A stretch of DNA of 64,000 nt from the NCBI GenBank assembly GCA_039811685.1, contig JBDHZC010000002.1, positions 384,001 through 448,000 of the forward strand. Reading direction: 5' to 3'. Both the position numbers and the translations under genes were made by a program. Below the pieces are notes generated by a model, which searched no databases, was not told the origin of the DNA, and was given only the letters and a program-made list of their open reading frames with translations. This DNA comes from Armatimonadota bacterium (GTDB taxonomy: Bacteria; Armatimonadota; UBA5829; DSUL01). Numbering within the stretch: the stretch's first letter is position 1; each line of letters opens with the position of its first letter. Below are positions 23,915-41,866 of the stretch, one piece after another.

Positions 23915-25588
23915 ATGGAAGCCTCATCAGCACTGAAGTTTTTGCGGTTGGTGGTCTGGATAGCGCCGGTTCTGGCGATTGCCTGGGTACTCCTGGCCGA
24001 TCTGATGGACAGGACCCAGGACGGACGCCGGGAACCACTCACCCCGTTGTTGCTCTTTGGCTGCGCCGCTGTCGCGCTGACATTAGCGGCGGCCTGGGCA
24101 GTGAGCGCAGCCGTCCACAAAGGCGCCGAGGATACAGTGCTGTGGCCAAATATTCTGGCGGGCGGCGCTTGCGCTCTGGCCGGGGCCGCTTTAGTCGGCC
24201 ACATCCACCGCCGCCAGCTGGAGTCCTCCGCCTCCGCCGGAGCGCCCCGCGCTCAGTCTGACGCAGCGATTCTCGCGGTTGCTATTCCCGTTTCGTTGGC
24301 CGGTTATCTGATTTCGAAATCCGGGGCGCGTCCGGACGCGTGGCTGAGCGCTGCGCCACTCGGAAGCGCCGCATTTGTCTCTCTTTTTGTTCTCGCAGCC
24401 CGCGCACAGCGCCGCGCTTCTCCAGGATCTGCGCTGCCGCTGCGGCTGAGCGGCCCGCTGGAAATGCTGGCGGCGGTATGCGCCGTCGTCGCGCTCAGCA
24501 TGCTTGTGGGAAGGCTTCTTCGCTTCGACGAGCAGCTCATCAAGCACGCGGGTGATGTGGTTGCGATGAGCTTGGCCGTTGGCCTGCTGCTCTGGCTGCC
24601 ACTCAGCGTAATTCAGCGCACTCTTGCTCCGCGCTGCCTGATATTTCCGATAGGAGCCTCCGTCATTTACACCAGTGTTGGGGCATGGCTGTTTGGACTC
24701 GTCGCAAAGGCGAACTTGCTGGGAAGCCCTGTGTCGCAGTGCCTGCAAGTGGGACTGGCGGCCGGGATAGTGCTTGCGCTCATGAGCACGGCCGGGCTGT
24801 TTCACAGGGAGTCCGGCTACAGCGCACAGGCCAACGCAATCGCTCTGGTTGTTATCGCCTCGGCGCTGGCTCTGTGCTTGCGGCTGCTGGCAGGCTTCGG
24901 AGTGGCAGCGTGCGCCGGTGGAATGGTCGCCGCAGTGCCCGTCTGGGCGCTTCTGACGCCGTGGCGCACAAAATCTGAGCTGGGGGCAGAGCATGCGTTT
25001 CCGGCGTCTCTGGTGTGGGGCGCTGGCTTCCTCGCGTGCGTGGCGGCGCTTCGCATCTGGCTTTCCTTGAACGATGCGACAAGTATCAACATCTTCTCTT
25101 CTTATCCGCTGCTGGGGATGATCATCGGCCTTTCCCTGCCTTTTGTCGTCTGGTCGCTCAGCGCAGGACGCAACGAAGACGCGGTCTCACCAGGCGGAAC
25201 GGCGCTGGCGCTGTTTGGCTCTGTAGTTGGATGGCTTGTGGTGGTCGGGGCAATAGCGGGGGTCGCTGTCGTGCTGCGAGAGCCTGCAGTACGCCTGTTT
25301 TTATTCGGATTGGGAGCTTCGGGACTGGCCGGTCTGGCCGTAGCAGGCGCCGTGCGTGAAGAGTGGACAAGCGCTCCGGTTGTGTCCACGGCGCTTCTGT
25401 CTTCGCTGCTGACTGTGACGTGCGCCAGAGCGCTTATGGATATTTCAGCAGAAGCGAGCCGGCCGGAAAAAGTCAAAGCGCTGGCAGTCATCTTTGGCGC
25501 CGTGATTGTGTTCTATCTGCTACTTGAGATATGGCGGACGCTGGCTCTGCGCCAAAGGACAACCGCGATTATTGTGGAGGAGCCGTAA
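23915..25588 (+). CDS. Polytopic membrane protein of unknown function (~15-16 TM)
   Basis: 557 aa, almost entirely hydrophobic segments; RBS and promoter upstream. Confidence 0.8.
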   Translation: MEASSALKFLRLVVWIAPVLAIAWVLLADLMDRTQDGRREPLTPLLLFGCAAVALTLAAAWAVSAAVHKGAEDTVLWPNILAGGACALAGAALVGHIHRRQLESSASAGAPRAQSDAAILAVAIPVSLAGYLISKSGARPDAWLSAAPLGSAAFVSLFVLAARAQRRASPGSALPLRLSGPLEMLAAVCAVVALSMLVGRLLRFDEQLIKHAGDVVAMSLAVGLLLWLPLSVIQRTLAPRCLIFPIGASVIYTSVGAWLFGLVAKANLLGSPVSQCLQVGLAAGIVLALMSTAGLFHRESGYSAQANAIALVVIASALALCLRLLAGFGVAACAGGMVAAVPVWALLTPWRTKSELGAEHAFPASLVWGAGFLACVAALRIWLSLNDATSINIFSSYPLLGMIIGLSLPFVVWSLSAGRNEDAVSPGGTALALFGSVVGWLVVVGAIAGVAVVLREPAVRLFLFGLGASGLAGLAVAGAVREEWTSAPVVSTALLSSLLTVTCARALMDISAEASRPEKVKALAVIFGAVIVFYLLLEIWRTLALRQRTTAIIVEEP

Positions 25589-26276
25589 TAGCGGATCGCG
25601 TGGGTTGGCCCACAAGGTAGCTGTCAACAGACAGGCGTTCTCTCTGGCTTCCTCGAACACGCCAGAGGCTGGCGATAAGGCGCGGTCCGGCGCGTCTCTG
25701 GTGAGCTTCAACTCGCACATTTGACCGCGCGCCCGCGCCAACAACAGACACGACCAGCCGAGCGCCAGCCGCCTCAGCTCGCACATTCACCGGTGTGGCG
25801 CGGTTGTTGCGAAAACGCAAGTCCGCTACCCCCAAAGCCACCGTAGCATCGCGCCCGCACGGGACACTGGCGATTGGCCGGGAATGCGCGTGGCGCTCGG
25901 TGATCTCCAGGTCAGCCAATACGGCCGCGTTGTAGAGTGTGGATGAGACCTGACAGATACCGCCTGCCACTGCATCCTCCACCGCGTTTCCAACGTACGC
26001 CCGCGCCTCCTTCCAGCCACGGTCCGAGGTGGTCGGACCGAGCGCCTGAGCCATAGAAAACTCTTTGCCAGGGAGGATAGCGCGCGCGTCAATCAGGCGC
26101 GCGGCGCGGCGTATATTGGCCAACTGATCAGAACTTCGCCCCTGAAGCGTTGTTGAATAGCTCCCCAATACAGTCCGCCCGGAGGACTCCACGAGCCTTG
26201 AGCCTACCCAGAGAAGAGCCACCAGCGACAGAACACCGACAACGCCTGCCCAGACTCTCATCGAGCGAGTTTTCAC
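25569..26276 (-). CDS. VanW-domain protein (predicted L,D-transpeptidase), membrane-anchored
   Basis: N-terminal TM; NI..AA..ID...PG.EFS, GGICQVSSTLYNA, ERHAHS, GRDATVA..DLRFRN. Confidence 0.9.
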   Translation of the reverse strand: MKTRSMRVWAGVVGVLSLVALLWVGSRLVESSGRTVLGSYSTTLQGRSSDQLANIRRAARLIDARAILPGKEFSMAQALGPTTSDRGWKEARAYVGNAVEDAVAGGICQVSSTLYNAAVLADLEITERHAHSRPIASVPCGRDATVALGVADLRFRNNRATPVNVRAEAAGARLVVSVVGAGARSNVRVEAHQRRAGPRLIASLWRVRGSQRERLSVDSYLVGQPTRSAITAPPQ

Positions 26277-29200
26277 CGCACACTCAGCCTGTCTTCCGAG
26301 GAGCTTCCGGACATCAAGGGCTGGTACATCGAGTAAGCCTGGCAGGGCATTACATGCAGATCGCCCGGCACTTCAGCGCGTACATCAAAGCTGATCTCCC
26401 GCTCTGCGCCGGACATAAAGCGCACGAACGCGCCTACCTTCTCATCGTGAATCTCCAACCCTGAGTAGGAGTTGTCCCATTCCCTCTCCGGGTGCATCAC
26501 TTCAAACCCGCTCGGCAGCGGGTTGTCAACCAGAACATAGGAGGCATCGCCTTTGCCGCGAATCTTGATTTGCACCCGAACGACCTCGCCAACCTTTATG
26601 CGGCCACGCACAGGCTGCGTGTCCTCAGTGTACTTCGGCGCTCCGTCGTCTCCCACGCCCGCGCGCGTCAACTTCACGCGCAGCAAGTTTCTCTCAACAG
26701 TGAAAAAGCCCTTCTGTGCAGGAACGTCCTCGCGCGAGCTCAGATAGCTCAGGTTCGCGGTCCAGAACAGCGGCCCGCTTCCAGACTTCGTTATCACAAT
26801 CCGGTTGACGCCCCGGTTCAGCTTGCTGTTTTCAATGATGAAGCTCTTTGGCCTGCGGAAGTAGTCTTCACGCGTGACGTCAAACGTTCCTACGCTGCGG
26901 CCGTTAACCTGCACGTTCGCGGAATAGGTCACAGGCTGCACGCGTTCCAGATGCTCAAGCAGCGCCAGCGTGCACAGCGCTGTGTCACGGGTGGAAACCC
27001 AGTATCCTCCGCTGCGGCGCTCTGCCAGATAGCGCGCGGCCGGCTCCAGAGCGTCCACCGGGCGGCCGGCCCGCGACAGCACGCGCATAGCCATGGCAGT
27101 GGCAGCGTAGTCACTCCAGTAGTTCGAGGTCTGCTCGTTGTGCCAGAGCAACAGACCTTCAGAGCGTTTGGCGCGCTTTTCGAGCAACGACGCAATCTCC
27201 GCCAGCGCCGCTCCTCTCCCTGCGCTTGAGGCCGCCATACCCAGGCATGCCACACCGAAGACAGACATCTCAGAGCGTTTCGCATACAGCGCGTCAAAGC
27301 TCTGTATATCGAATCCTCCGCTCGCTGCCAGCGCCATTACCGCGTACGCCCGGTCTTCCAGAGTGGCCAGATACCTGGGCTGCGCCTTTGGGCGGTCCTG
27401 CGCGGTAGGTCTGGGCGGAAGGGGTTGCCGCATGTGCCGTCCGAGCCACGACGCCGCAGACTCTATCATCCCGGAAGGAATCGAAACACCTGCTTCTCGA
27501 GCCTGCACAAGCCCCAGCAGCGCATACGCCGTCATCCCTACGTCCGCATCCGTCTCGCTATACCATCCGAACGACCCGTCCGAATGCTGCATTTCCCTCA
27601 GTTTTCGAAGTCCGTGCGCGATCATTTTCGGAAGCTCAGCGCGCGTTTTTTCGTCCACGGGCGCCCCAAGGTTTGTCAGTGCCTGCTGCACCAGAACGTC
27701 CGGTACAAAGCTGGACACCGTCTGCTCCACGCACCCCCACGGGTACGTCGCAAGATACCCAAGAGCCTGAATCACCGCGCCCGCCGCCGAGGGTGTCAGA
27801 TCTATACGCAGCGCTGCGCCGGACAGTTGACCATCCCTGTCCATACTGAGGGCAACGCTTGCGCCCTCTTCACCCGAAGCGCCTCCGGAAGCGTCCCTGA
27901 ACATACGCGCACCGTGCGGATAGACTGGGAAGCTCATCTGAAGGCGATCCACCGCGCTGCGGTCGTCAGTGATTGCCTCCGCCAGCAGAGTCGCCTCTCC
28001 TGGTGTCGTTACTTCCACCGGGAACTCCACGCGCGCCGTACCATTGGCCTCTACAGTTGCGCTGCGCACAGTGCCGGAACGCAGCTTCAGCCCTCTGGCA
28101 GTCAGGCGCACACTCACTTTCTTGCGAGCGCCCGTGTAGTTGTGAACCACCGCCCCGAGCGTCTGAGTGTCCCGCTGACGGAAGAAGCGCGGAACTTGCA
28201 GACGCACAATCAGGTCTTTCGTTACCGTCACCTTCTGAGTGCCAGCCCCAACGGCAGTCGTATCCGTTACAGCACGAGCGGTCGCTCGCCAGGTGGTGAG
28301 TGAATCTGGCATTGTGAAAGAGACAGTCGCCACTCCGAGGGAGTCTGTCTTAATGACAGGATTCCAGTACGCGGTGTCTGGGAAGTACTTGCGCACCTTG
28401 TTTTCGAACTTGTCCAATCCGCCGTAGTAGTAGTCTTCAAGGCTGTTGGAAGTGTTCACGTTGTTGGAGCGCGGCCCCCAGAAGTACTTCTGAATATCCG
28501 GCGTACTGTCGTTTCGCAAAGCGTAGATGGACTCATCCACGACCCCCAGCGAAACTTCAGCGGGCACTCCATGGCCGGAGGCGTTCAGCGTCTCAATGGT
28601 GTAGGTCGCCTTCTCGCCGGGCTGGTAGCGCTGTTTGTTACTCGTAATCTTGACAGTAAGGAGGCTGTCCTGAGGAGATATGGCAATGCCTGTCTCCTGT
28701 GACTGAATCTGCCTGTCAGCCAGCAGAGTGCACACCAGAGTCACACTTGGGAGGTAGTCGTTCTCAATGGGCAGATCCAGCATGTACGCAGCGCCTTTGG
28801 TGCGAACCACACGGGCTTCGTACAACTTTTCTCCTTCCACTGTCAGGAGAAGTGTGGCGGACGGGTGGTTGGACTTGATGAGAATGTGCGCCGTGTCACC
28901 CTTCTGGTACATCTTCTTGTCCGGGACGATTGTCAGAGCTTCTTCTGAGCTCGAGGACTCCTCCCAAAAAGCCTCTGTCCCCACATACACGTAGGCCTCT
29001 GCCTGCGCTGTGCGCCCTGCGGAGTCTTTTGCCCGGAAAGTAAAGACCAGTTGACCCTGCGCCGTTGCCTTCCAGCTCAGCGTGGCCAATCCGCCAGCGT
29101 CTGTGCGCGCTGAACCGGTTCCGACCTGACGCCGGATTTCCTTTCCACCTCTCCAGTCAGCACGCTCGATGACGACGTCTATTGGCTTATCCGGCACTAT

Positions 29201-30997
29201 TCGACGGTCCCAGTCCACCGTCTTGATTTTGAAGCGCACAGTCTCACCCGGCCGGTAAACGTAGCGCAAAGGTTCGGGCTGGACGGCAAAATCCGCCGGG
29301 ACCACGTTAGCTCCGGCCGAAGCGCTGACTTCCTTCATAGTTGGGTCCACAACGCGCGCTTCAACTACATAGCGGGACTGATGCTCCTCGCCCTGGGTAT
29401 CGATCTCGGTCTTGAAGTCTCCGTTGTCGTCAGTCACGCCGCGCCCTTCCCTGACGACCTCCCCGTAACCGCCGTAGTCATATCCGTAGTCACCCTCATT
29501 GAACCAGCTCTCGTACTCGTTGTCGTAGTCCCAGAAAGTCCAGTCGGAACGATAGACGGTGTAGGTGACTTCCGCGTTGGCGACCGGAGCGCCGAAGTAG
29601 TAGTTCGCGCGTACAGAGACCGGTATCTTCTGCCCGCGAATGTAGTACGGCTTCGGAATTGCGACGGCGACGGCATATTCAGGCTTGCGATACTCTTCGA
29701 TGGCAAAGCTCGCCTGGAAGCGCGAGTTGGAAGCCTGGTCTGCCTCCCCTGAGAACACGACCCCGACTGTGTAACTGCCGAGCTCTGCTTCCTCGGGAGA
29801 AACCCAGCTACCGTAAGCGGTGCCCTGATCGCTTGCTACAGCGCTGACGCGGGCCACTATCTGACCCTGTGGCGCGCGGATGAGAAACTCCACATTCCCG
29901 CTTGTCCGCTTCTGGTATCCGCTGCCTGTCCAACGGCGGAAGATTCCCTTGAAATGGACAGTGTGTCCGGGGCGGTAGATGGGGCGGTCCGTATAGAGAA
30001 GCTGATCCTGATCGAAGTGATAGTCACCCATGTACGACCCGGTCATAGCCACGGACTTGCCCGAGCGCGCTATGATGGCGGCGCTTTCCGGGCCTGTGAA
30101 CTCACTGCGCCAGAGACCGTCCTCGCCGGTGACACCTGAGAGCAGCTTATGGGACCCCGTATAGACCTCGACTGAGGTATCTTTCAACGGACTGCCGCTC
30201 TTGATGTCCGCAGCCCACACCAGCAGACTCCCTCTGTCTCGCTTTACGACAACGGAAAGGTTGGTAATATTGACAGGGTCTGCGCTGACCATCCTTCCGA
30301 GAAAACCAACGACTATGTAAGTCCCAGGCTCGCTGATTGTGGGGATGGCGGGCCAGCCCGTGAAGCTACCATCCATTTCTGAGGTGCGGTAGGCGCGATC
30401 CCACTGTTCTAAAGGTTGAATGGAGTCCGTGAGACTTTTCAGAAATCTCTCCTGAAAGCTCTGCCCGTCCTGGCTGCGCTCCAGCCGGGCGCGGACAAGA
30501 TCGTAGGGATAGACAGCGAAGTGAATCTGCGCGAGCTCGGCGTCCCAGACGCCGTTGACTGTGAGGTGCTTTCGAGAGCCCGGCACGGCGGTTCTGGGGT
30601 AATTGACGCTCAGATTGAGGGAGTTGTGCGCCGGATAGAGCACTATGTCCGGGACTCGCAGCGTCCGCCCCTCAGTAAGAGAGCCTGACTCCTGCGTCGA
30701 CTCCGAAAATCCCCGTCTGCCTGCGGTAATCTCGTGGTAGCCCACGGGTGTCTGTGGCGCCCGCCACTCGCCGTCTTCGTCAGTGCGCACGTGGCGGTAC
30801 TCATCAGGGACGGTTGTGGGGACGGTTACAAACGCCCGGGCGATCGGCCTGCCCTGGTCGTCTATCACGCGCCCGCGCAGAATGCCGACCCGAGGCTCTC
30901 CGGCCACTGTCATTGTGAGTAACCCGGCAGTGATCGCCAGGGCGAAACCCAGAAGAACGACCCCTGCCCAGGGCCGCCGAATTCTTACACCCGCCAT
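26273..30997 (-). CDS. Bacterial alpha-2-macroglobulin (thioester type) with N-terminal carboxypeptidase-regulatory-like domain
   Basis: YTDRPIYRPG (MG2), IEEYRKPEY, VRKYFPDTAYW, PDSLTTWRA, YPWGCVEQT thioester, W.STRDT, LPSGFE. Confidence 0.95.
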   Translation of the reverse strand: MAGVRIRRPWAGVVLLGFALAITAGLLTMTVAGEPRVGILRGRVIDDQGRPIARAFVTVPTTVPDEYRHVRTDEDGEWRAPQTPVGYHEITAGRRGFSESTQESGSLTEGRTLRVPDIVLYPAHNSLNLSVNYPRTAVPGSRKHLTVNGVWDAELAQIHFAVYPYDLVRARLERSQDGQSFQERFLKSLTDSIQPLEQWDRAYRTSEMDGSFTGWPAIPTISEPGTYIVVGFLGRMVSADPVNITNLSVVVKRDRGSLLVWAADIKSGSPLKDTSVEVYTGSHKLLSGVTGEDGLWRSEFTGPESAAIIARSGKSVAMTGSYMGDYHFDQDQLLYTDRPIYRPGHTVHFKGIFRRWTGSGYQKRTSGNVEFLIRAPQGQIVARVSAVASDQGTAYGSWVSPEEAELGSYTVGVVFSGEADQASNSRFQASFAIEEYRKPEYAVAVAIPKPYYIRGQKIPVSVRANYYFGAPVANAEVTYTVYRSDWTFWDYDNEYESWFNEGDYGYDYGGYGEVVREGRGVTDDNGDFKTEIDTQGEEHQSRYVVEARVVDPTMKEVSASAGANVVPADFAVQPEPLRYVYRPGETVRFKIKTVDWDRRIVPDKPIDVVIERADWRGGKEIRRQVGTGSARTDAGGLATLSWKATAQGQLVFTFRAKDSAGRTAQAEAYVYVGTEAFWEESSSSEEALTIVPDKKMYQKGDTAHILIKSNHPSATLLLTVEGEKLYEARVVRTKGAAYMLDLPIENDYLPSVTLVCTLLADRQIQSQETGIAISPQDSLLTVKITSNKQRYQPGEKATYTIETLNASGHGVPAEVSLGVVDESIYALRNDSTPDIQKYFWGPRSNNVNTSNSLEDYYYGGLDKFENKVRKYFPDTAYWNPVIKTDSLGVATVSFTMPDSLTTWRATARAVTDTTAVGAGTQKVTVTKDLIVRLQVPRFFRQRDTQTLGAVVHNYTGARKKVSVRLTARGLKLRSGTVRSATVEANGTARVEFPVEVTTPGEATLLAEAITDDRSAVDRLQMSFPVYPHGARMFRDASGGASGEEGASVALSMDRDGQLSGAALRIDLTPSAAGAVIQALGYLATYPWGCVEQTVSSFVPDVLVQQALTNLGAPVDEKTRAELPKMIAHGLRKLREMQHSDGSFGWYSETDADVGMTAYALLGLVQAREAGVSIPSGMIESAASWLGRHMRQPLPPRPTAQDRPKAQPRYLATLEDRAYAVMALAASGGFDIQSFDALYAKRSEMSVFGVACLGMAASSAGRGAALAEIASLLEKRAKRSEGLLLWHNEQTSNYWSDYAATAMAMRVLSRAGRPVDALEPAARYLAERRSGGYWVSTRDTALCTLALLEHLERVQPVTYSANVQVNGRSVGTFDVTREDYFRRPKSFIIENSKLNRGVNRIVITKSGSGPLFWTANLSYLSSREDVPAQKGFFTVERNLLRVKLTRAGVGDDGAPKYTEDTQPVRGRIKVGEVVRVQIKIRGKGDASYVLVDNPLPSGFEVMHPEREWDNSYSGLEIHDEKVGAFVRFMSGAEREISFDVRAEVPGDLHVMPCQAYSMYQPLMSGSSSEDRLSVR

Positions 30998-31066
30998 ATC
31001 CCCGTTTTCAACCTCGATTTACAGTTATCTGTTAGACCACGTTCCGCGTCGCTTCGGTGCGGGTGA

Positions 31067-31075
31067 ATGATAGCA
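31067..31075 (-). promoter_or_regulatory. Extended -10 TGcTATCAT for the macroglobulin-VanW operon
   Basis: ~70 nt upstream of ATG 30997. Confidence 0.5.
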
Positions 31076-31458
31076 CGCCTGAGCGCCGGATACCAGACCC
31101 TGCAAGAGTTGTGCGAAGGCAAACGGAAAGGCAATCTGAAACAGACTTCGGACGCGGGCGCAGGGATGGAGTCTCACTCGGTTGACATGACGTGGCGAAG
31201 AGGGTAAAGACTAGGAAGCCCGGTGCACAATTTCCAGAGTGGATTCTGGCTGTCGCCAGGCGCGCCACCCCAACTTTTCACGACTTCGCAGCCCGATTTT
31301 GCACAGACACGTCAGTGTGACTTGTTCTTTTCGGGTGAACGCAAAGGCGCAGGCAACCCGTCTTGTGTGGTACAGGTGTGTCAGTCGGTGGCGTAGGCGC
31401 CGGGCGCTGAGACACCGGCGATAGTAGACTACAAGAGCACAGAGGAGGACACAAGACT

Positions 31459-31701
31459 GTGGCTTATGTCATCACAGAACCCTGTATCGGGGTGAAGGAC
31501 AGGTCCTGCGTTGAGGCTTGTCCTGTAGACTGCATCCATGGAACCGACGACGATCCGCAACTCTACATCGATCCAGAAGTCTGTATCGACTGCGGCGCCT
31601 GCGAACCCGTTTGCCCGGTAAACGCTATTTATCCGGACTACAACGTGCCAGACGACCAGCAGAAGTACATCCAGATCAATGCGGAGTACTATCAGAAGTA
31701 G
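31459..31701 (+). CDS. Dicluster ferredoxin (7Fe/8Fe type)
   Basis: GAGGAGG RBS; CIGVKDRSCVEACPVDCI and CIDCGACEPVCP. Confidence 0.95.
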   Translation: MAYVITEPCIGVKDRSCVEACPVDCIHGTDDDPQLYIDPEVCIDCGACEPVCPVNAIYPDYNVPDDQQKYIQINAEYYQK

Positions 31702-31832
31702 CTGCGCTCAACACTGAGAGCGCCAGCAAGCTACCACAAACAGCGAAAGGCCTGCCGAGATTTCCAAAAAACTTGCGCCGGCACTACCGCTGAAAGCCAA
31801 TATCTGAGAAGCAACAGCCTCTCACTCTGACG

Positions 31833-31879
31833 AGCCTCCTCGATCAGCCACTCTGATTCGGGGAGGTTTCTGTTTTTTT
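31833..31879 (+). terminator. Intrinsic terminator downstream of ferredoxin
   Basis: GCCTCCTCGA-TCAG..CTGA-TTCGGGGAGGT stem followed by TTCTGTTTTTTT. Confidence 0.75.
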
Positions 31880-31978
31880 GCCCCACAGCAACCTCCAAGG
31901 CAACTTTTTACACGGCGAGCGCGCCATTCCCCTGTGAGCTTTTGGCCTGATACACTGCTTCGGCTGCATCCGGCGCGA

Positions 31979-32007
31979 TTGACGCTTTGATGGGCAGATG
32001 TTACAAT
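31979..32007 (+). promoter_or_regulatory. Sigma70 promoter of tRNA-Ser
   Basis: TTGACG-N17-TACAAT with TG extension. Confidence 0.75.
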
Positions 32008-32018
32008 TTCGCATTCAC

Positions 32019-32112
32019 GGAGCGATGTCCGAGTTGGTCGAAGGAGCACGACTGGAAATCGTGTAGCGGGGTTAAAACTCGCTCGTGGGTTCGAATCCCA
32101 CTCGCTCCGCCA
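32019..32112 (+). tRNA. tRNA-Ser(GGA), long variable arm, encoded CCA
   Basis: Acceptor GGAGCGA/TCGCTCC, G discriminator, anticodon arm CACGA-CTGGAAA-TCGTG, T-loop GTTCGAATC. Confidence 0.97.
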
Positions 32113-32228
32113 CTTTGTCCGGAGCGTATCTTCAGTTTCCAGCGGGTCCGGGGGAGAGTCCGTTCGGGAGGGCGCGGACAAGACAAATCAGCAGCGCGTT
32201 CAGGCGCAGCAACACAACAGCAGATACA

Positions 32229-33791
32229 GTGACAAAGACAACAGCGTTATTGCTAGCTCTTCCTCGACGCCTGTTCATCGGGCATCATTCGCATTCGTGG
32301 CGCAGCGTCGTCGTTCGCTTCTTCGTGGCGGCGGTCTTCGTTCTCGTCTGCACCTGTCTGGATATCAGCCTGAAGATTCAATCCGCAAACTCTTCTCAGG
32401 GAGTGGCGGGGCTGGCTTCGGCGCGCCATCTGACACACAGCGCGCGGCTCCTTGTGATCTCCCCGCATCCGGACGACGAATCGCTGGGGTGCGCAGGCCT
32501 CATCCGAAGCACGGTTCGCGCGGGTGGCAAGGTGCGGGTGGTTTTTCTTACCAATGGGGACGGATTCCGGGTAGCCGCTGAGCGCGAGACACGTGAGCTG
32601 CGGGTAACGCCCTCAGAGTTCGTGCAGTTCGGCAACTACCGCCGCCGCGAAACTGTGAAAGCCGACTCTCATCTGGGTCTCAAAGAGCAGGACCTGACCT
32701 TCCTTGGGTATCCAGACCGGGGGCTGGTCCCGATGTGGACGGACTACTGGAACACTCCGTTCACGTCCCGCTACACCCGCGCCAGTTCTGTGCCTTACGA
32801 GAAGGCCTACCTTCCAAACGCCCCCTATACAGGCAAAAGCGTCCTTCAGTCGCTGGTAGCGATTATCAGCGACTACCGGCCGACCAACATCGTTGTGACC
32901 CATCCGCTGGATGACCATCCGGACCACTACGCCGCCTTTGCGTTCGCGACCGCAGCCCTCGAAGAAATTCGCGAGCGCGATCCGGCCTATGTCGCCCGCC
33001 TGGATCTGCGCACGTATCTGGTGCACAGAGGACAGTGGCCTAGCCCGCGCAAAGGCGCCGCTGAGCGCTGCATGGCGCCTCCCGCGTCCTTCGCTGATCA
33101 CGATCTGACGAAGTGGGAGATATTGACGCTTTCACCCGCGGACATCGCCGCCAAAGACGCCGCCATCAACTCCTACAAATCGCAGACCGCGATTATGGGG
33201 TCTTTTCTGCGCAGCTTCGGACGGAGAAACGAGCTTTTCGGCGCTATAAGCGAGCCTGCAATTCCCGTAGTCCGCACTGGAGCAATCCGTATTGACGGCG
33301 ATCTCAACGACTGGAAAACGATAAAACCGCAGATTGAAGACCCGACATCCGACAATCTCAGTCGCGCTCTGCGGGAAGGGGCTGACTTGAAGGCGCTCTG
33401 GTTGGCGCAGGACTCTGAAAATCTCTACCTGCGAGTGGATACCGCCAGGAAGATGCCAACCGGCCTGCGTCTGCGCGTGTTGGTGAGAGCCATAGACGGC
33501 AGCAAATCCGAAGCCCTTCCCATCGTGCTCACCGCGCCGCGATCGTTGACTCCGGCAGGATCACAGTTTGTCTGCAAGGCAAACACACTGGAAGCGCGTA
33601 TCCCGCTGTCAAAGCTGAGCATGCTGAACCAGCGGCCGCCGGGGATGACCAGAGTGTGGGTCGGCGCAAGCACTTACTATCTGGGGTTCAACATAGACAA
33701 AACCGGGTGGCGTCCGATGTCGCTGTCAGCCCGGACTCGAAGCGCTGCGCGTACGCGCGCACTCAGACTCTCAGGGCAGGGTGCCGGCTAG
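32229..33791 (+). CDS. PIG-L/LmbE family N-acetyl deacetylase with C-terminal CBM9-like domain (start uncertain)
   Basis: TM/signal; SPHPDDES, FLTNGD, FLGYPD, DDHPDH, YKSQ; then IRIDGDLNDW. Confidence 0.85.
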   Translation: MTKTTALLLALPRRLFIGHHSHSWRSVVVRFFVAAVFVLVCTCLDISLKIQSANSSQGVAGLASARHLTHSARLLVISPHPDDESLGCAGLIRSTVRAGGKVRVVFLTNGDGFRVAAERETRELRVTPSEFVQFGNYRRRETVKADSHLGLKEQDLTFLGYPDRGLVPMWTDYWNTPFTSRYTRASSVPYEKAYLPNAPYTGKSVLQSLVAIISDYRPTNIVVTHPLDDHPDHYAAFAFATAALEEIRERDPAYVARLDLRTYLVHRGQWPSPRKGAAERCMAPPASFADHDLTKWEILTLSPADIAAKDAAINSYKSQTAIMGSFLRSFGRRNELFGAISEPAIPVVRTGAIRIDGDLNDWKTIKPQIEDPTSDNLSRALREGADLKALWLAQDSENLYLRVDTARKMPTGLRLRVLVRAIDGSKSEALPIVLTAPRSLTPAGSQFVCKANTLEARIPLSKLSMLNQRPPGMTRVWVGASTYYLGFNIDKTGWRPMSLSARTRSAARTRALRLSGQGAG

Positions 33792-34226
33792 GAGCCGGAA
33801 GACCCACACGCCCAGAAGCAACACAAGAGCCGCGCCAGCGCCTGTCCACTTCCACATAAGCGAAATATCGCCCAGCCCTCTCCTGCGACGCCACCAACCG
33901 ACGCTGTAATACAGAGCGGCGCCTGCCAGATAGACAATCAGCAGCGGGTGATAACGCCAGGATTGGCGCACATGTCCGTGCAGCAGCGCATGAAGCGAGC
34001 GTGTCATGCCGCAGGTTGCGCAGTCAACGCCGAAGGTCCGGCGCATAAAGCAGGTGGCAGGGATTTTCTCTACCGGCAGCACCCACACGAGGACTATCGC
34101 CGTGACAACCGCTGCGAGAAGAATTCGGCCCGACAGCGCGCTGCTCTTCGCGCCAGGAGGCAGAAGAGGACGTGGCGGGTGTATTTGCCCTTTCCGGGAA
34201 GACTGCTCTGTTGAGAAGATGCTCAC
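33771..34226 (-). CDS. DUF2752 domain membrane protein
   Basis: CFM..FGVDCATCGMTRS..LLHG....W.YHPL. Confidence 0.85.
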   Translation of the reverse strand: MSIFSTEQSSRKGQIHPPRPLLPPGAKSSALSGRILLAAVVTAIVLVWVLPVEKIPATCFMRRTFGVDCATCGMTRSLHALLHGHVRQSWRYHPLLIVYLAGAALYYSVGWWRRRRGLGDISLMWKWTGAGAALVLLLGVWVFRLLAGTLP

Positions 34227-35296: not shown

Positions 35297-36079
35297 TTAC
35301 GCCGCCATGAACATCACATCCAGCCACCGGGAGAGCTTTGCCTGCAGCTTCAGGATGGCTTTGGTGTGAATCTGGCACGCTCTGGACTCGGAAAAACCGA
35401 GAACCTGCCCAATCTCTTTGAGGGTCATATCCTCGAAATAATACAGGGCGATGACCGTGCGTTCGTTGTCCACCAGGCTGTCAATAGCTTCCGCCAACAT
35501 CCGCTTCACCTGCGAGTTTTGCGCGTGCGTTGCCGGATCGTATGCCATGTTATCGGCGATATTTGAGGAAGAATTTAGATCGCCGATGTCAGAAATTACG
35601 GCGTCCAGGCTTTCGATGGCGGAGGCGTTCATAACTGTGAGAAGCTCTTCCAGCTCCTCCTGCGAAATGCCGAGCGCATCGCGCAACTCCTCGTCTGTCG
35701 CGCTGCGTCCCTCAGACATCTCGATTCTGCGCATCGCCTGCCGCAGTTTGTTCTCACTGTTGCGCACAGCGCGGGGCAGCCAGTCTGTGCTGCGCACCGC
35801 ATCCAGAATCGCTCCGCGAATGCGCACCAGCGCGTACGCCTCAAACGGACGCCCCATCTCGAGATCAAAGCGCTCGACAGCGTCAATGAGTCCCACAATA
35901 GCATGGCCATAGAGGTCATCCTGAGAAAAGACCGGGCCGGTGGGAATGTGTACGCGGCCGGCTCCAACTTTGGCCAGGTACATGTAGTGTTCAATAAGGC
36001 GCGTGCGCGCGTCAGCGTCTCCGTGCTCTTTGAAGCGCTTCCACAGATATGCGGTTTCAGAGTGTTCAGAAGAGATCAA
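35297..36079 (-). CDS. fliA: RNA polymerase sigma-28 (FliA/WhiG family)
   Basis: GLIDAVERFD, YALVRIRGAILD..R..DWLPR, LYYFEDMTLKEIGQVLGFSESRACQIH. Confidence 0.95.
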   Translation of the reverse strand: MISSEHSETAYLWKRFKEHGDADARTRLIEHYMYLAKVGAGRVHIPTGPVFSQDDLYGHAIVGLIDAVERFDLEMGRPFEAYALVRIRGAILDAVRSTDWLPRAVRNSENKLRQAMRRIEMSEGRSATDEELRDALGISQEELEELLTVMNASAIESLDAVISDIGDLNSSSNIADNMAYDPATHAQNSQVKRMLAEAIDSLVDNERTVIALYYFEDMTLKEIGQVLGFSESRACQIHTKAILKLQAKLSRWLDVMFMAA

Positions 36080-36083
36080 TTAG

Positions 36084-36305
36084 CTATTTGTCTTCCTGCG
36101 CGCCCTGACCAAACGTTCCAGAGCGCTCCAGTCCGTCCACGACACCCGCCAGCAAATTGCCGATAAGCCGCACGACTACACCCGCGCCGATGGATTTCAG
36201 CGCACACGTCAGCAGGTCCTGACCGCCCGTCACGCAGATGAACATGGTGACCAGAAAAGCCACCAGCCCGAGCATATTGCTGACCCACTGATAGAGCGAA
36301 ACCAC
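36084..36305 (-). CDS. Small 2-TM hypothetical protein between flhF and fliA
   Basis: 73 aa, two hydrophobic helices, 3-4 nt gaps to both neighbours. Confidence 0.65.
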   Translation of the reverse strand: MVSLYQWVSNMLGLVAFLVTMFICVTGGQDLLTCALKSIGAGVVVRLIGNLLAGVVDGLERSGTFGQGAQEDK

Positions 36306-36308
36306 TGT

Positions 36309-37436
36309 TTATCCGCCAGAGCCTTCCAGACTCTGAAGCACCAGCAACGCCATCTCCACAGCCTGAGCGCAACGGATGCCTCCAGGAATGCTCTGCCCCG
36401 TCGTCAGGTGGCTGATGGCGGTGCGGCTGCTCTGCCCAATGGCCGCTACCGGGCCTGCCGTAGAGGCTTCATCCAGCTTGCTGACAATCAGTCGGTAAGG
36501 ATCTATCCGTTCAAACGCCCGGAGCATCTGTGCGCGCACATCCGGGGCCAGGTTCGCCGGCACGACAACCACAGGCCGCACCCTGTCGTCGCTGAGGAGA
36601 GATTTGAGAGAAGAGATAAAGTCTTGGTCGCGCGCGCTCCCGCCTGCTGTATCAATAAAAATGACATCGTACTCCGTGAAGCTGTCCAGAGCCGCACTCA
36701 GGCCCTGCGGGGAGACAGCCTCGCAAAACGGGACATCCAGCGCGCTCACAAGAGTCTTGAGCATGGCAGACGCTCCAAGGCGCTGGGTATCGCATCCGAT
36801 GACAGCTACCCTCCTGCCCTGGCGGAATTTGTATTCAGCCGCCAGCCTCGCAAGCGCCGTCGTTTTGCCTGAGCCCGTTGAGCCAACCAGAGCAAAGACG
36901 CCAGGTCCTTGCTCCGGAAGAGTAAAGTCAGCGCAGGTGAAAAGGCAACTCCACTGCTGCGCCAGCTCTTCCAGCGGCTTTCCGGAGCGCGCGGAGCGTA
37001 CAATCTGCGCCGCCAGAGCAGGCTCTACACCAGCGTCACGCAACCGGCGCTCTGCGGTTGACTCCGGCCGCACGTGGGCCGCCAACACACCTTCCCCCAC
37101 CAGAGACTCAAGCGCAGTGCGCAACGCAGCCACTTCACCCGCCACATTGCCGGGACCAGAAGCATGCGAATCGCCAGCGCTGTCTGCGGAGGCGAGCGCT
37201 GGGCTTACAGGCTGTGGGGTGCGCAGCGCGCTCACAAGCGCCGCATCTGTCTCATCCACCGCCGCAACCAGCTCAACCAGAGTCTGCGACAGCGCCCGGC
37301 CGTTTGCGCCCGCTCGCATAGCGGGCGACTCGGCGTACTCCCGCGTGTTCAAGATCACCGCGTCCTCGCCAAGTTCGCGCCGCGCCAGCTCCATGGCTTC
37401 CTTGAGCGTTCTTGCTTCAAATTTCTTGATTTTCAT
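36309..37436 (-). CDS. flhF: Flagellar SRP-family GTPase FlhF
   Basis: MKIKKFEA..ELGEDAVIL, GSTGSGKTT, DTAG, SKLDE, TTGQSIP. Confidence 0.9.
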   Translation of the reverse strand: MKIKKFEARTLKEAMELARRELGEDAVILNTREYAESPAMRAGANGRALSQTLVELVAAVDETDAALVSALRTPQPVSPALASADSAGDSHASGPGNVAGEVAALRTALESLVGEGVLAAHVRPESTAERRLRDAGVEPALAAQIVRSARSGKPLEELAQQWSCLFTCADFTLPEQGPGVFALVGSTGSGKTTALARLAAEYKFRQGRRVAVIGCDTQRLGASAMLKTLVSALDVPFCEAVSPQGLSAALDSFTEYDVIFIDTAGGSARDQDFISSLKSLLSDDRVRPVVVVPANLAPDVRAQMLRAFERIDPYRLIVSKLDEASTAGPVAAIGQSSRTAISHLTTGQSIPGGIRCAQAVEMALLVLQSLEGSGG

Positions 37437-37473
37437 CTTCTTACTGAATCCGCAATACCGTGTTATACGTTAC

Positions 37474-39573
37474 CTAGACAGGTGCGACTGGCTCGGCAGA
37501 CGCCACCTCTTCGACCATCACCATCCCCGTTGACTCCACATTGACTCCGGTTGGAATCTCGTTGTAGCTCAACACGGGAAGCTGCGGGAAATTGCGCTCT
37601 ACCAGCCGGCGAAAATGCATCCGGACAGGCGCCGAAACCAGCGCAAGCGGCGAATGTCCGTTCATTGCGATGCGCTCCATTTGATCTCTGACGGAGAGCA
37701 GAATCTTCTGCAGCAGCTCCGGATCAATAATGCAGCGCACGCCGTTCTCCGTCTGGCGCAGCGACTCCGAGAGGTGGTGCTCGATGCGCGGGTCCACCGT
37801 GAACACATGCAGCCTTCCGTCGGGCTCCGTATGCTGCCTGGTGATCTGTCTCCCCAGCCGCTCGCGCACCTTTTCCACCAGAATGTCCACGTCCTTGGTC
37901 AAGGGCGCATGGTCTGCCAGCGCCTCCAGAATACTTGAGACATCCCGAACATCAACGCGCTCATCCAGCAGGCGGCATAACACGCGCTGAACCTCACCAA
38001 CCGACATAATCTTCGGCACCAGTTCATCTACCACGATAGGCGCTTTCTCTTTCACGGAGTCGATGATAGCCTGGACGTCCTGGCGGGTTACAATCTCACT
38101 TGCGTGCGAGCGGACAAACTCAGAAAGATGAGTTATCAACACTGTGACAGCGTCCACCACGCTGCATCCCAGTGACTCGGCAATGCTGCGGTCCTGCTCG
38201 GCAATCCAGACGGCCGGAAGCCCAAAGGCGGGTTCAGTTGTGCGCAGGCCCGGGATGTCAATGGATCCGCCGCTTGGGTTCATCGCAAGCAACTGGCCAG
38301 GGTAGCTCTCTCCACGCGCCACTTCCACGCCCTTGAGCTTGACGGCGTACTCTGTTGGCTTGAGTTGCAGATTGTCACGCACCCGAATGGGTGGCGTCAC
38401 AAATCCGGATTCCGTAGCCATCTGACGGCGCAGCGCTGTGACGCGGTCCAGCAGGTCTCCGCCCTGTTTTCTGTCCGCCAGAACAATAAGCCCGTAGCCA
38501 ATCTCAAGCTCCAGCGGGTCAACTCCCACCAGCTCAGCCAGATTCTCCGGCGGTTTTGGCGCATCCGGCTGCTCCTGCGCGGCGGGTCTGGCTGAGGCCG
38601 CTGCCTGCTGTCTGGAAAGTGTCATCGCGAGAAGTCCCGCCATCGTTCCGACAAAGAGAAACGGAGCCTTGGGAATGCCCGGGACGAGCCCGAGCATTAG
38701 AAAGACGCCGGCCGCAGTCCCGATGGCTTTGGGCTGTGCGAGCATCTGCGTGCTGAGGTTAGCGCCGAGGTTGGTCTCCCCGTTAGCCCGGGTGACAACC
38801 AGACCGGTCGCAGTGGAAATGAGAAGCGCCGGAATCTGCGCAACCAGCCCCTCTCCAATAGTCAGCAGAGTGTAAGTCTGCAGCGCTGTCTGCAGGTCCA
38901 TATGGTGCTGGACTATGCCCACCGTGAACCCGCCGAGAATGTTGACGACGATGATGATTACCGCCGCGATAGCGTCCCCGCGCACGAACTTGCTCGCGCC
39001 GTCCATCGCTCCGTAAAAATCTGACTCCTCAGCAATCTTCTTGCGGCGCTCGCGGGCTTCATCTTCGTTAATCAGCCCCGCGTTGAGGTCTGCGTCAATG
39101 GCCATCTGCTTACCAGGCATCGCGTCCAGAGTGAAGCGCGCCGCAACCTCCGCCACGCGCCCCGCGCCATTTGTGATAACCACAAACTGGATCATCACCA
39201 GAATGATGAAGACAACCAGCCCGACGATATAGTTGCCACCCACAACCACAGAACCAAAAGCGCTGATGATCGCGCCTGCCTCCGCGTGCAGCAGAATCAG
39301 ACGGGTTGCGGAGATGTTGAGCGCCAGCCGAAAGAGCGTTACGATGAGCAGCATCGAGGGAAAGCTGCTGAAATCCAGAGGGCGCGCGCTGTAGATAACC
39401 ACCAGCATGATGGTCAGAGCCAGCGTTATGTTGAACCCGAGCAGAATGTCCAGCAGCCACGACGGCAGCGGAACGACCATCATCCCGACGATGAGCACCG
39501 CGCCCAGAGCGCTGACCAGGTCCGGGCTTACCAGCTTTCGCTGCGGGTTGGGTTGTGCTATTGCTACAGCCAA
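37474..39573 (-). CDS. flhA: Flagellar export protein FlhA
   Basis: RVAEVAARFTLDAMPGKQMAIDADL, FYGAMDGASKFVRGD, EPAFGLPA. Confidence 0.98.
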   Translation of the reverse strand: MAVAIAQPNPQRKLVSPDLVSALGAVLIVGMMVVPLPSWLLDILLGFNITLALTIMLVVIYSARPLDFSSFPSMLLIVTLFRLALNISATRLILLHAEAGAIISAFGSVVVGGNYIVGLVVFIILVMIQFVVITNGAGRVAEVAARFTLDAMPGKQMAIDADLNAGLINEDEARERRKKIAEESDFYGAMDGASKFVRGDAIAAVIIIVVNILGGFTVGIVQHHMDLQTALQTYTLLTIGEGLVAQIPALLISTATGLVVTRANGETNLGANLSTQMLAQPKAIGTAAGVFLMLGLVPGIPKAPFLFVGTMAGLLAMTLSRQQAAASARPAAQEQPDAPKPPENLAELVGVDPLELEIGYGLIVLADRKQGGDLLDRVTALRRQMATESGFVTPPIRVRDNLQLKPTEYAVKLKGVEVARGESYPGQLLAMNPSGGSIDIPGLRTTEPAFGLPAVWIAEQDRSIAESLGCSVVDAVTVLITHLSEFVRSHASEIVTRQDVQAIIDSVKEKAPIVVDELVPKIMSVGEVQRVLCRLLDERVDVRDVSSILEALADHAPLTKDVDILVEKVRERLGRQITRQHTEPDGRLHVFTVDPRIEHHLSESLRQTENGVRCIIDPELLQKILLSVRDQMERIAMNGHSPLALVSAPVRMHFRRLVERNFPQLPVLSYNEIPTGVNVESTGMVMVEEVASAEPVAPV

Positions 39574-39694
39574 AGGTGTGACTCAGTCCTTTTCAGTACG
39601 TGCGCAGCGACCGCGCCGCGTCCACTGACAGCGTCCTTATTAGACCTGACAGGAAGGTACGGAGACAGCCGCGCGTCGCTTTGAATCTGCCTGC

Positions 39695-40765: not shown

Positions 40766-40773
40766 TTAGATTT

Positions 40774-41556: not shown

Positions 41557-41574
41557 GTCAGAATCTCGATTTCC

Positions 41575-41841: not shown

Positions 41842-41866
41842 TTGTTACTCCTCGAAACACCGTCCG

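Follow-up and report, generated by a model that had tools for sequence, protein, structure and literature searches.

A thioester alpha-2-macroglobulin, a short VanW protein and a third membrane protein form a candidate envelope module in Armatimonadota

Type I bacterial macroglobulins are placed on the outer face of the cytoplasmic membrane and are encoded with the peptidoglycan transpeptidase PBP1C; the accepted reading of these operons is that the pbpC-macroglobulin pair works by 'trap and repair' (both statements from PMC5764988). In a 64,000-nucleotide stretch of an Armatimonadota genome, here called the window, a preliminary description had noted such a macroglobulin with a VanW-domain gene as its neighbor and without pbpC. 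The locus therefore raises the question of whether the VanW protein is a true partner of the protease trap and, if so, what it does at the position held by PBP1C in the textbook pair.

The macroglobulin and VanW genes

The 1574-residue macroglobulin and its intact CVEQ thioester motif were recovered exactly as first described, using ORF, Pfam, and motif searches (Table 1). The protein comprises an N-terminal anchor, CarboxypepD_reg, MG domains, a bait region, TED, and bMG10. The Pfam E-values were 1.3e-25 for MG2, 3.1e-24 for A2M, 1.2e-19 for A2M_BRD, 7e-17 for bMG10, 4.8e-14 for TED, and 1.1e-13 for CarboxypepD_reg, and MG2, bMG3, A2M_BRD, A2M, TED_complement, and bMG10 all scored above the cut-off. 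The closest solved structures were E. coli YfhM (5a42, 1.8e-23) and Salmonella A2M (4u48), with a sequence relation also to 4ziq. GCxEQ was kept in 38 of 41 VanW-linked macroglobulins; in the macroglobulin alignment (A3), E1091 was invariant, and C1089 and Q1092 were nearly so. Hydropathy analysis located a single hydrophobic segment at the N-terminus, its top-scoring 19-mer beginning at residue 13, which could be either a signal anchor or a signal peptide. Residues 1-50 contain no cysteine and therefore no lipobox such as that of YfhM. Related macroglobulins likewise carry a hydrophobic helix, followed by an E-x-P-x-G motif.

Table 1. Positions of the genes and motifs of the module in the window
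Feature	Coordinates	Strand	Evidence
Gene X, 557-aa polytopic membrane protein, membrane-pyrophosphatase-like predicted fold	23915..25588	+	HMM, model, fold search, survey
Short VanW-domain gene, 235 aa, GTG start	25569..26276	-	ORF, Pfam, structure model
ERHAHS (residues 127-132) ... GRDAT (141-145), with His131 and Asp143 as candidate triad partners	25842..25898	-	Motif search
GGICQ (residues 105-109), with Cys108 as candidate catalytic nucleophile	25950..25964	-	Motif search
GTGA, macroglobulin stop (TGA) overlapping VanW start (GTG)	26273..26276	-	Sequence
Thioester alpha-2-macroglobulin gene, 1574 aa	26273..30997	-	ORF, Pfam
CVEQ thioester motif (residues 1089-1092) inside GCVEQ (1088-1092)	27722..27733	-	Motif search
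N-terminal hydrophobic segment of the macroglobulin (about residues 9-33)	30899..30973	-	Hydropathy

The reported overlap with the VanW gene was also found: in the junction ...gtg cgG TGA aaa..., four bases are common to the macroglobulin TGA and the VanW GTG. An in-frame ATG at 26259-26261, five codons downstream of the GTG, is another possible VanW start; however, 14 of 15 related loci of the class and 25 of 41 loci from two phyla also show an NTGA overlap, which favors the overlapping GTG.

The VanW protein consists of one N-terminal helix (a single hydrophobic segment, top 19-mer from residue 8), the VanW domain (residues 52-178; PF04294, E 2.3e-43, 147 bits against a cut-off of 27), and a short beta-rich tail, and Pfam detected no PG_binding_4 domain in its 235 residues. 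Hydropathy and motif positions agreed with the earlier account of a membrane-anchored protein that keeps GGICQ and ERHAHS. In a 12-sequence alignment (A1), C108, E127, R128, H131, R142, and D143 were invariant, and GG[IVL]CQ was found in all 41 macroglobulin-linked VanW genes. In the structure model, pLDDT fell below 50 across residues 130-148, that is, exactly over the candidate His131-Asp143 stretch. We read the protein as a putative Cys-His-Asp L,D-transpeptidase. Assignment as the glycopeptide-resistance VanW (NCBIfam equivalog) was rejected at 50 bits against a curated cut-off of 365, leaving a VanW-domain protein only.

Conservation of the linkage and a third partner

Within the class, our reading of the gene listings gave macroglobulin-VanW linkage in 24 of 26 macroglobulin-bearing genomes, and 15 linked loci were confirmed by tblastn. 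Across the phylum, at least 63 of 151 sampled genomes, belonging to many families, have a short VanW gene immediately downstream of a bMG10-type macroglobulin gene, in the same order, on the same strand, and mostly with a four-base overlap. In a second phylum (a sample of the cyanobacterial phylum, to which a Sericytochromatia MAG belongs), a macroglobulin gene precedes 12 of the 14 short VanW genes; one Sericytochromatia MAG has AMMECR1 directly upstream of the pair, and the sole AMMECR1 gene of the present genome sits away from the module, beside a SpoIID gene. Twenty loci from a third phylum, in a lineage of Bacillota, included two adjacent pairs and three in-frame TED-bMG10-VanW fusions, each in a different genome. 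The exceptions are eight genomes of the phylum in which X and the macroglobulin lack an adjoining VanW gene, and at least six short VanW genes without an upstream macroglobulin. The adjacency is far beyond chance, and the fusions suggest a tighter physical coupling than a loose 'trap plus repair' arrangement needs.

PBP1C was sought through its marker PF06832, which had no match anywhere in the 97%-complete genome; the absence of pbpC noted for the window thus extends to the genome, whose one class-A PBP is located on a different contig. The marker scored above the cut-off in none of 41 class genomes and in 3 of 151 phylum genomes, in none of them on a contig with a listed macroglobulin match. 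The preliminary description had proposed a survey of macroglobulin neighborhoods for VanW against pbpC, and a pbpC-linked macroglobulin in close relatives would have spoken against it. Linkage to VanW proved to be conserved in the class, the phylum, and a second phylum and fused in a third, and among the matches listed for the 41 class and 151 phylum genomes no pbpC-linked macroglobulin turned up. As a genomic statement, it holds that VanW stands where PBP1C stands, and the VanW partnership replaces the textbook pairing of macroglobulin and PBP1C. Our literature search found no paper joining VanW and alpha-2-macroglobulin.

The module has a third conserved partner, the membrane protein X, which had been overlooked and is new here. 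X is present in 61 of the 63 genomes that carry the macroglobulin-VanW pair and lies directly upstream of the macroglobulin gene in 56 of 78 X-holding genomes; in the window it is inverted and convergent with VanW, their 3' ends overlapping by 20 bases. When the genome was searched with an HMM of 29 X sequences taken from other genomes, the only ORF matched was that of the window (E 8.3e-19). The X model contains about 16 helices (pTM 0.81). Alignment of this model with VIA-align gave Z scores of 26.6 (rmsd 3.6, 515 residues) and 25.4 against pyrophosphatases, the next unrelated structure scoring 10.2; with Foldseek (E 2e-7, TM 0.52-0.64), the best 36 among the matches listed (E<=0.001) were all pyrophosphatases. 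Membrane-integral pyrophosphatases are defined by catalytic aspartates and lysines. When the 29 X sequences were examined, no acidic column was conserved at >=70%; the conserved positions were glycines, R380, an H-Y pair, and basic residues near helix ends. Neither the window protein nor three relatives had a Pfam match at E<=1, H_PPase included. X thus agrees with the pyrophosphatases in predicted fold, but the Pfam match and the conserved acidic residues are missing.

Possible functions of the module

Our first choice, to which we assign a probability of roughly 40%, is a conserved three-protein envelope module that combines a protease trap, L,D-cross-link repair by VanW, and X as a platform; its main rival has VanW tethering the trap to the wall. 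The genome encodes TolC-like OEP and AcrB proteins, which indicate an outer membrane and a periplasm. The N-terminal helix of the macroglobulin would hold the trap at the outer face of the cytoplasmic membrane and, as in Type I action, a protease in the periplasm would cut the bait region, expose the buried Cys-Gln thioester, and become covalently bound. Because its start codon overlaps the stop codon of the macroglobulin gene, VanW would be synthesized together with the trap. It could then take a tetrapeptide stem as a thioacyl intermediate and join it to a neighboring stem (a 3-3 cross-link), re-knitting or reinforcing the wall at the site of ongoing attack, with X as the membrane platform holding both proteins in place. 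The role proposed for E. coli PBP1C would fall to VanW, an enzyme that is not homologous to it and does not depend on new precursor. We infer all of these activities and the division of labor among the three proteins. In favor of the repair reading are the intact thioester, the invariant VanW C108, H131, and D143, the activity of the C. difficile VanW domains, the conserved linkage with its fused forms, the absence of the PBP1C marker from the genome, and the co-occurrence of X.

Several observations count against repair. The VanW catalytic domain begins only about 10-20 residues past the membrane helix and may not reach a diderm sacculus, and the protein lacks the PG_binding_4 domain of its 508-residue housekeeping paralogue (PG_binding_4, VanW, and G5) in the same genome. 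For general 3-3 cross-linking, the genome already holds two YkuD-type and two other VanW-type candidates. A catalytic repair role requires neither 1:1 coupling nor fusion, and the joining of VanW to the C-terminal end of the macroglobulin would be explained at least equally well if VanW worked on the trap or together with it. The genomes in which X-macroglobulin or short VanW genes occur without the expected neighbor are also harder to reconcile with repair. In addition, the one published test (PMC11348318) gave L,D-transpeptidase activity in only three of seven foreign VanW proteins.

In the main rival, which we regard as possible but doubtful, VanW would use the same thioacyl chemistry, but the acceptor would be an amine on the macroglobulin or on the protease complex it has trapped, so that the trap is covalently tied to peptidoglycan and VanW is a dedicated one-substrate enzyme. 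The parallel is with L,D-transpeptidases of the YkuD type, which fix Braun lipoprotein or outer-membrane proteins to the wall. Translational coupling of an enzyme with its presumed substrate, and their fusion in three genomes, would fit such a role, as would the loss from the short VanW of PG_binding_4, the general wall-binding domain of the paralogue. Attachment of lipoproteins and outer-membrane proteins to peptidoglycan by L,D-transpeptidases is established (PMC12729407). Moreover, PBP1C and VanW are unrelated transpeptidases that both accompany macroglobulins, and the trait they share is that both transfer stem peptides to amines. Features of the macroglobulins count against anchoring: no C-terminal lysine is conserved (over 41 loci the last residue varies among R, K, P, E, Q, L, and D), no lysine is invariant in the last 400 residues of alignment A3, and the likely mature N-terminus often starts with Q, whose cyclization we infer. 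We also know of no VanW protein that attaches proteins.

It is unlikely, in our estimation, that macroglobulin, VanW, and X form a machine fixing captured proteases to the wall. After bait cleavage and thioester capture, VanW, which is tethered to the trap or fused with it at its C-terminal end, close to the thioester domain, would move a stem peptide onto either the trap or the captured protease, immobilizing the enemy enzyme on the sacculus; X, its catalytic site lost, would be a membrane platform or an ion-driven or conformational switch licensing the reaction. Such a VanW would, if the reading is true, be the first known to attach proteins, and it would suggest that PBP1C does the same for Type I macroglobulins. 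To our knowledge, the function of PBP1C has been unclear for decades.

We give still less weight to a role away from the wall, in which VanW would stabilize, position, process, or regulate the macroglobulin without acting on peptidoglycan, and its Cys-His-Asp site could be vestigial or a peptidase acting on trap or prey. The precedent is MagB in the Type II operon magABCDEF of Pseudomonas aeruginosa, a single-helix membrane protein required for the stability and membrane location of MagD (PMC5764988). A structural partner would fit stoichiometric coupling and fusion, and in the published assay four of seven foreign VanW proteins had no activity (PMC11348318). Nevertheless, the candidate catalytic residues and motifs are invariant in proteins with 32-53% identity to the window VanW, which speaks for a functional active site; the macroglobulin carries its own membrane helix; and the short VanW forms match the profile of the wall-active long forms across the entire VanW and tail region. 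Finally, a housekeeping VanW gene lying beside the macroglobulin by chance, as might be imagined with VanW-type matches in 148 of 151 phylum genomes, is refuted by the surveys, in which order, strand, and overlap are repeated, the pair recurs in a second phylum and is fused in a third, and PG_binding_4 paralogues never adjoined a macroglobulin in the loci examined.

Comparison with known systems

The macroglobulin shares with the Type I systems, E. coli yfhM-pbpC (ECAM/PBP1C) and Salmonella Sa-A2M, the multi-MG chain, the bait region, the TED with CxEQ, and the C-terminal bMG10. It differs from YfhM in carrying an N-terminal helix and CarboxypepD_reg in place of the lipobox. The downstream gene is VanW rather than pbpC; compared with PBP1C, VanW has no transglycosylase domain, its chemistry would be Cys-based instead of Ser-based, and the predicted links are 3-3 instead of 4-3. 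Further differences from the Type I operon are the extra partner X, the stop/start overlap, and the fused forms in Bacillota. In Type II systems (magABCDEF and the E. coli yfaS operon), the macroglobulin is likewise grouped with co-encoded envelope proteins; however, these systems have six genes, no thioester, and no VanW or 16-helix partner, whereas GCVEQ is intact here and the module neighbors are VanW and X only, which places the locus outside Type II.

According to PMC11348318, the VanW domains of two Clostridioides difficile proteins, Ldt4 and Ldt5, have Cys-dependent L,D-transpeptidase activity, for which a Cys-His-Asp triad is proposed; one review states that some VanW proteins lack this activity. 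The protein described here has in common with Ldt4 and Ldt5 the VanW domain, the Cys in a GG-x-C-Q-type motif, and the N-terminal membrane helix, and its conserved His and Asp are candidates for the corresponding triad partners. Those enzymes are general cross-linkers of about 450-550 residues with PG_binding_4 and G5, whereas this VanW has 235 residues, lacks PG_binding_4, and, going by its linkage, would be devoted to a macroglobulin. X resembles the membrane-integral pyrophosphatases (Vigna radiata H+-PPase 5gpj, Pyrobaculum 8b37, and Thermotoga Na+-PPase) in predicted fold, but shares only 12-13% identity with them, is about 150-200 residues shorter, and lacks the catalytic aspartates. The AMMECR1-macroglobulin-VanW trio of the Sericytochromatia MAG has the macroglobulin-VanW core in common with the Armatimonadota module, in which the upstream partner is X.

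The gene pair and its host genome

The two open reading frames, the CVEQ thioester, the GTGA overlap, and the GGICQ and ERHAHS motifs from which the preliminary description proposed an envelope defence and repair pair were all re-found in the sequence. At the junction (gtg cgG TGA aaa), the macroglobulin stop and the VanW start have four bases in common; an alternative VanW ATG start is possible five codons downstream of the GTG. Comparison of the macroglobulin with Pfam placed MG2, bMG3, A2M_BRD, A2M, TED_complement, and bMG10 above their cut-offs and located a CarboxypepD_reg domain in the N-terminal part. The closest solved structures were those of E. coli YfhM (ECAM) and the Salmonella macroglobulin, and the closest named relative carries the name Armatimonadota. 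The short VanW protein matched the Pfam VanW domain at 2.3e-43, fell far short of the threshold set for VanW of resistance clusters, and has a GRDAT motif in addition to the two mentioned. Both proteins have one strongly hydrophobic N-terminal segment; that of the macroglobulin contains no cysteine, so that the protein, unlike YfhM, is not a lipoprotein. With the third partner described below (X) included, every product of the module either spans the cytoplasmic membrane or faces it.

Coordinates of the module, its surroundings, and related genes of the host genome (G000); window coordinates unless a contig is named
Feature	Position	Strand	Description
Macroglobulin ORF	26273-30997	-	1574 aa, ATG start
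CVEQ thioester motif	27722-27733	-	GCVEQ, macroglobulin residues 1088-1092
Short VanW ORF	25569-26276	-	235 aa, GTG start
X	23915-25588	+	557 aa; convergent with VanW, 3' ends overlapping by 20 bases
Interval upstream of macroglobulin (about 1 kb)	30998-32084		ORFs of 78-91 aa only (119 aa on the other strand)
PIG-L deacetylase domain protein	32085-33791	+	568 aa; between module and flagellar genes
DUF2752 protein	33771-34226	-	Between module and flagellar genes
Flagellar export cluster	35297-43869	-	FliO, FliP, FliR-type, FlhB, FlhA; SRP54-type GTPase (probably FlhF); sigma-70-family factor (probably FliA); a few kb upstream of module
Second macroglobulin	G000:C1:501686-506380 (L117:4687-9378)		1564 aa; full TED and A2M receptor-binding domain
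AMMECR1 gene, the only one in G000	G000:C1:944154-947627 (L242)		On another contig than the module; N-terminal hydrophobic segment

Promoter-like and terminator-like sites were no commoner than in shuffled sequence. RNA-library contigs of 151-263 bases from three sludge metatranscriptome studies, in which DNA carry-over is possible, mapped with at least 99% identity to parts of X, parts of the macroglobulin gene, and the stretch upstream of it; none of them bridged the macroglobulin-VanW junction. The nearby flagellar cluster shows no sign of a relation to the module.

The 3.42-Mb assembly of the host genome is 97% complete and encodes one class-A PBP, two YkuD-type L,D-transpeptidase candidates, three VanW proteins, and two macroglobulins. 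The preliminary description, which had VanW standing in for PBP1C, left it to be seen whether pbpC lies elsewhere in the genome; the PBP1C marker BiPBP_C (PF06832) had no match anywhere in the assembly. One VanW paralogue (508 aa; PG_binding_4, VanW, and G5) shares its domain architecture with the characterised VanW enzymes, and the remaining one has 375 aa. The second macroglobulin, with its full TED and receptor-binding domain, has an animal-like architecture and showed no VanW linkage in the relatives examined. Downstream of it come a 103-aa ORF and, next, TolC-like OEP, HlyD, and AcrB genes, a set that indicates an outer membrane.

Linkage of macroglobulin and VanW and absence of PBP1C

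Linkage in the class was read from two domain-match tables covering 41 genomes, including the host. In 24 of the 26 macroglobulin-bearing genomes, a short VanW gene followed the A2M match on the same strand and contig, at a distance of about 2.1-2.5 kb. One exception is a 69%-complete genome holding only a macroglobulin fragment. The other, G035, has X and the macroglobulin gene followed by a 120-aa ORF without family match (L118, G035:C16:14000-30000) and its short VanW gene at the end of another contig; the cause is a rearrangement or a break in the assembly. A tblastn search of 30 returned class loci placed a macroglobulin C-terminus directly before VanW in 15, and the other 15 were long paralogues. 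The stop and start overlapped as NTGA in 14 of the 15 linked loci; in the fifteenth, the macroglobulin frame was broken.

The linkage also extended through the phylum, for which an even sample of 151 genomes was used. The short-VanW profile matched in 148 of them and bMG10 in 121. Pairing by script, which used 150 listed bMG10 rows (27 further rows left out) and the 79 rows with a short open frame among 150 listed VanW rows (147 further rows left out), gave at least 63 genomes in which a bMG10 macroglobulin is followed on the same strand by a short VanW gene, 39-345 bases from domain to domain. All VanW-linked macroglobulins with an intact frame had 1550-1741 aa. A separate, longer class of bMG10 macroglobulins, whose 39 listed rows have open frames of 1840-2330 aa, included none that was VanW-linked. 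Examples of this long class are found at loci L149-L153, L169, L173, and L175. For sixteen short VanW rows, no macroglobulin partner was listed. Among 30 returned loci searched by tblastn, six of these genes had no macroglobulin upstream, and one (G083, L145) was preceded by a macroglobulin C-terminus after all, its bMG10 row falling outside those listed.

The PBP1C marker exceeded its cut-off in none of the 41 class genomes, so that no pbpC-linked macroglobulin appeared among close relatives, and in three of the 151 phylum genomes, where no listed bMG10 match shared a contig with it. The linkage and marker surveys support the earlier proposal that VanW replaces PBP1C as the genomic partner.

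Outside Armatimonadota, a scan of contigs (at least 602 stretches) found a macroglobulin gene upstream of VanW in one of 80 loci, a proportion that is no measure of frequency since the matches listed were mostly Bacillota housekeeping VanW genes. This best locus, from a Candidatus Sericytochromatia MAG, encodes a 1591-aa macroglobulin and a 227-aa VanW protein with an ATGA overlap. Of 121 genomes from the phylum of this MAG, 14 matched short VanW at E<=1e-30; in 12 of them, a macroglobulin C-terminus was encoded directly upstream. In a third sample, 151 genomes of the phylum holding Desulfosporosinus nitroreducens, 17 genomes had a bMG10 match. Twenty loci were returned from this Bacillota lineage; VanW was adjacent in another frame in two of them, and in three TED, bMG10, and VanW lay in one stop-free open frame, with VanW about 30 residues after bMG10 and lacking a membrane helix of its own. 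Judged from their reading frames, these three (loci L249, L250, and L252) are natural macroglobulin-VanW fusions. They surfaced only in the genome search of this lineage; none was seen among the best 150 of 16235 VanW profile matches (longest 745 aa), the 120 best longer VanW relatives (all PG_binding_4/G5 forms), or 71 relatives of the macroglobulin C-terminal part. The same lineage contains six macroglobulin-like frames of 1792-1859 aa with strong bMG10 matches and no VanW within 1.5 kb (L243-L247 and L260), and one record grouped with this sample is titled Caulobacteraceae MAG (L093), a title or binning that looks wrong. The macroglobulin-VanW linkage is thus conserved in at least three phyla. 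A literature search returned no paper containing both "VanW" and "alpha-2-macroglobulin" as whole words.

The working parts were compared across 41 two-gene loci, namely that of the Sericytochromatia MAG and 40 of the phylum sample. GCxEQ was present in 38 of the linked macroglobulins; of the other three, one has CVEQ without the glycine, one has CGEQ displaced by about 100 residues, and one has no motif. All 41 linked VanW proteins have GG[IVL]CQ. With start codons chosen automatically, the genes overlap by four bases at 25 loci, and the rest show a 1- or 19-base overlap or a gap of 0-100 bases. In an alignment of 12 short VanW proteins, 32-53% identical to that of the window, C108, E127, R128, H131, R142, and D143 were invariant. 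According to PMC11348318, published VanW enzymes combine a conserved Cys with His and Asp, and a Cys-to-Ala change ends cross-linking; H131 and D143 would occupy the corresponding triad positions. A PDB sequence search found no VanW structure, and our model of the protein (pLDDT 79 overall) is unreliable over residues 130-148.

The third partner, X

Clustering of the neighbours of the 41 two-gene loci revealed a further ORF, of about 450-630 aa, on the strand of the macroglobulin gene; it immediately precedes this gene, often with a 4-base overlap. Twenty loci fell into one cluster and seven into another, and in total 29 loci had an ORF of this type within 60 bases of the macroglobulin gene. 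The product, X, is a polytopic membrane protein without a Pfam match at E<=1. An HMM built from the 29 proteins had exactly one match in the host genome (E 8.3e-19), the 557-aa ORF of the window. In the phylum sample, X was matched in 80 of the 151 genomes, in single copy. Placement was typed for 78 rows, one per genome. In 56, X directly preceded a listed bMG10 macroglobulin gene of the same orientation; in two (the host genome and G001), it was convergent and downstream of VanW; and in 20, many on short contigs, no macroglobulin was listed within 8 kb on its contig. The full order X-macroglobulin-VanW occurred in 48 genomes of the phylum sample and X-macroglobulin without adjacent VanW in eight; X was present in 61 of the 63 genomes bearing the macroglobulin-VanW pair.

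The AlphaFold model of X (29-row alignment; pLDDT 76, pTM 0.81) had only one strong fold match, the membrane-integral pyrophosphatases. Foldseek gave 36 matches at E<=0.001, among those listed all pyrophosphatases (TM 0.52-0.64), and an independent fold search gave Z 26.6 (rmsd 3.6 over 515 residues) and Z 25.4, with the next chain at 10.2. Among the 29 sequences, conservation is confined to glycines, R380, an H-Y pair, and basic residues, and no acidic position is conserved at >=70%. X would therefore have a pyrophosphatase fold without the catalytic residues that define the membrane pyrophosphatases. The idea that X and VanW form a split PBP1C, as glycan polymerase and transpeptidase, was dropped, as neither fold search showed X to resemble SEDS proteins or other glycosyltransferases, a negative that does not exclude these families.

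X looks like an undescribed protein family. A word-indexed protein search yielded only eight relatives, none with a Pfam domain; the closest named one is a hypothetical protein from an Armatimonadota MAG. A protein-atlas search gave only matches of score 0.80 to unnamed archaeal clusters and thus no lead.

At the Sericytochromatia locus, X was not detected within 8-kb flanks, and the gene directly upstream of the macroglobulin encodes an AMMECR1 protein. The AMMECR1 protein of the host genome is probably exported, as suggested by its N-terminus, and its gene lies directly downstream of a SpoIID-domain gene whose product has a signal-like N-terminus. No paper joining AMMECR1 with a bacterial macroglobulin was found in a literature search.

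Possible function and relation to known macroglobulin operons

To our knowledge, no test has addressed the reason for which protease traps accompany a transpeptidase of the wall. Our tentative first choice, with a probability of roughly 0.4, is a sharpened form of the model in the preliminary description, in which the module combines trapping with wall repair. The macroglobulin would disarm proteases or wall endopeptidases entering the periplasm, VanW would re-make cross-links from the tetrapeptide stems left by the damage, with no need for new precursor, and X would serve as a membrane platform.

The main rival to this repair reading, somewhat less probable than it, makes VanW an anchoring enzyme that would link the trap, with or without its prey, to peptidoglycan. 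The 1:1 coupling of the two genes, the loss of the general wall-binding domain from the short VanW, and the fusion of VanW to the C-terminus of the trap in the Bacillota lineage fit such anchoring at least as well as they fit repair, and attachment of proteins to the wall is established for YkuD-family L,D-transpeptidases (PMC12729407). However, a conserved acceptor lysine, sought at the macroglobulin C-terminus as in Braun lipoprotein, was absent from the 41 linked loci. A non-wall, MagB-like role of VanW is improbable because its active-site motifs are invariant, and chance adjacency of VanW and macroglobulin is excluded. Two kinds of small and tractable protein, the minimal 235-aa VanW and the natural fusions, lend themselves to deciding between repair and anchoring.

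Bacterial macroglobulins have been sorted into two operon types, those with PBP1C and those with Mag/Yfa proteins, and the present module is a variant of these operons. Type I macroglobulin genes adjoin pbpC, as stated in PMC5764988. A second, unrelated transpeptidase family occupies the position of PBP1C in at least three phyla and is sometimes fused to the trap. The pairing of a macroglobulin with a stem-peptide transferase therefore looks less like a chance feature of gene order in enterobacteria and more like a principle that has been conserved. For the newly recognised VanW enzymes, this provides a first specific biological context beyond general cross-linking. X adds a membrane family of predicted pyrophosphatase fold, without the catalytic residues, for which the linkage is the sole functional clue. 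New here is that Armatimonadota use X where the Sericytochromatia MAG has AMMECR1; compared with the known operons, X would be an extra, previously unreported partner in Armatimonadota, its pyrophosphatase fold being that of the model.
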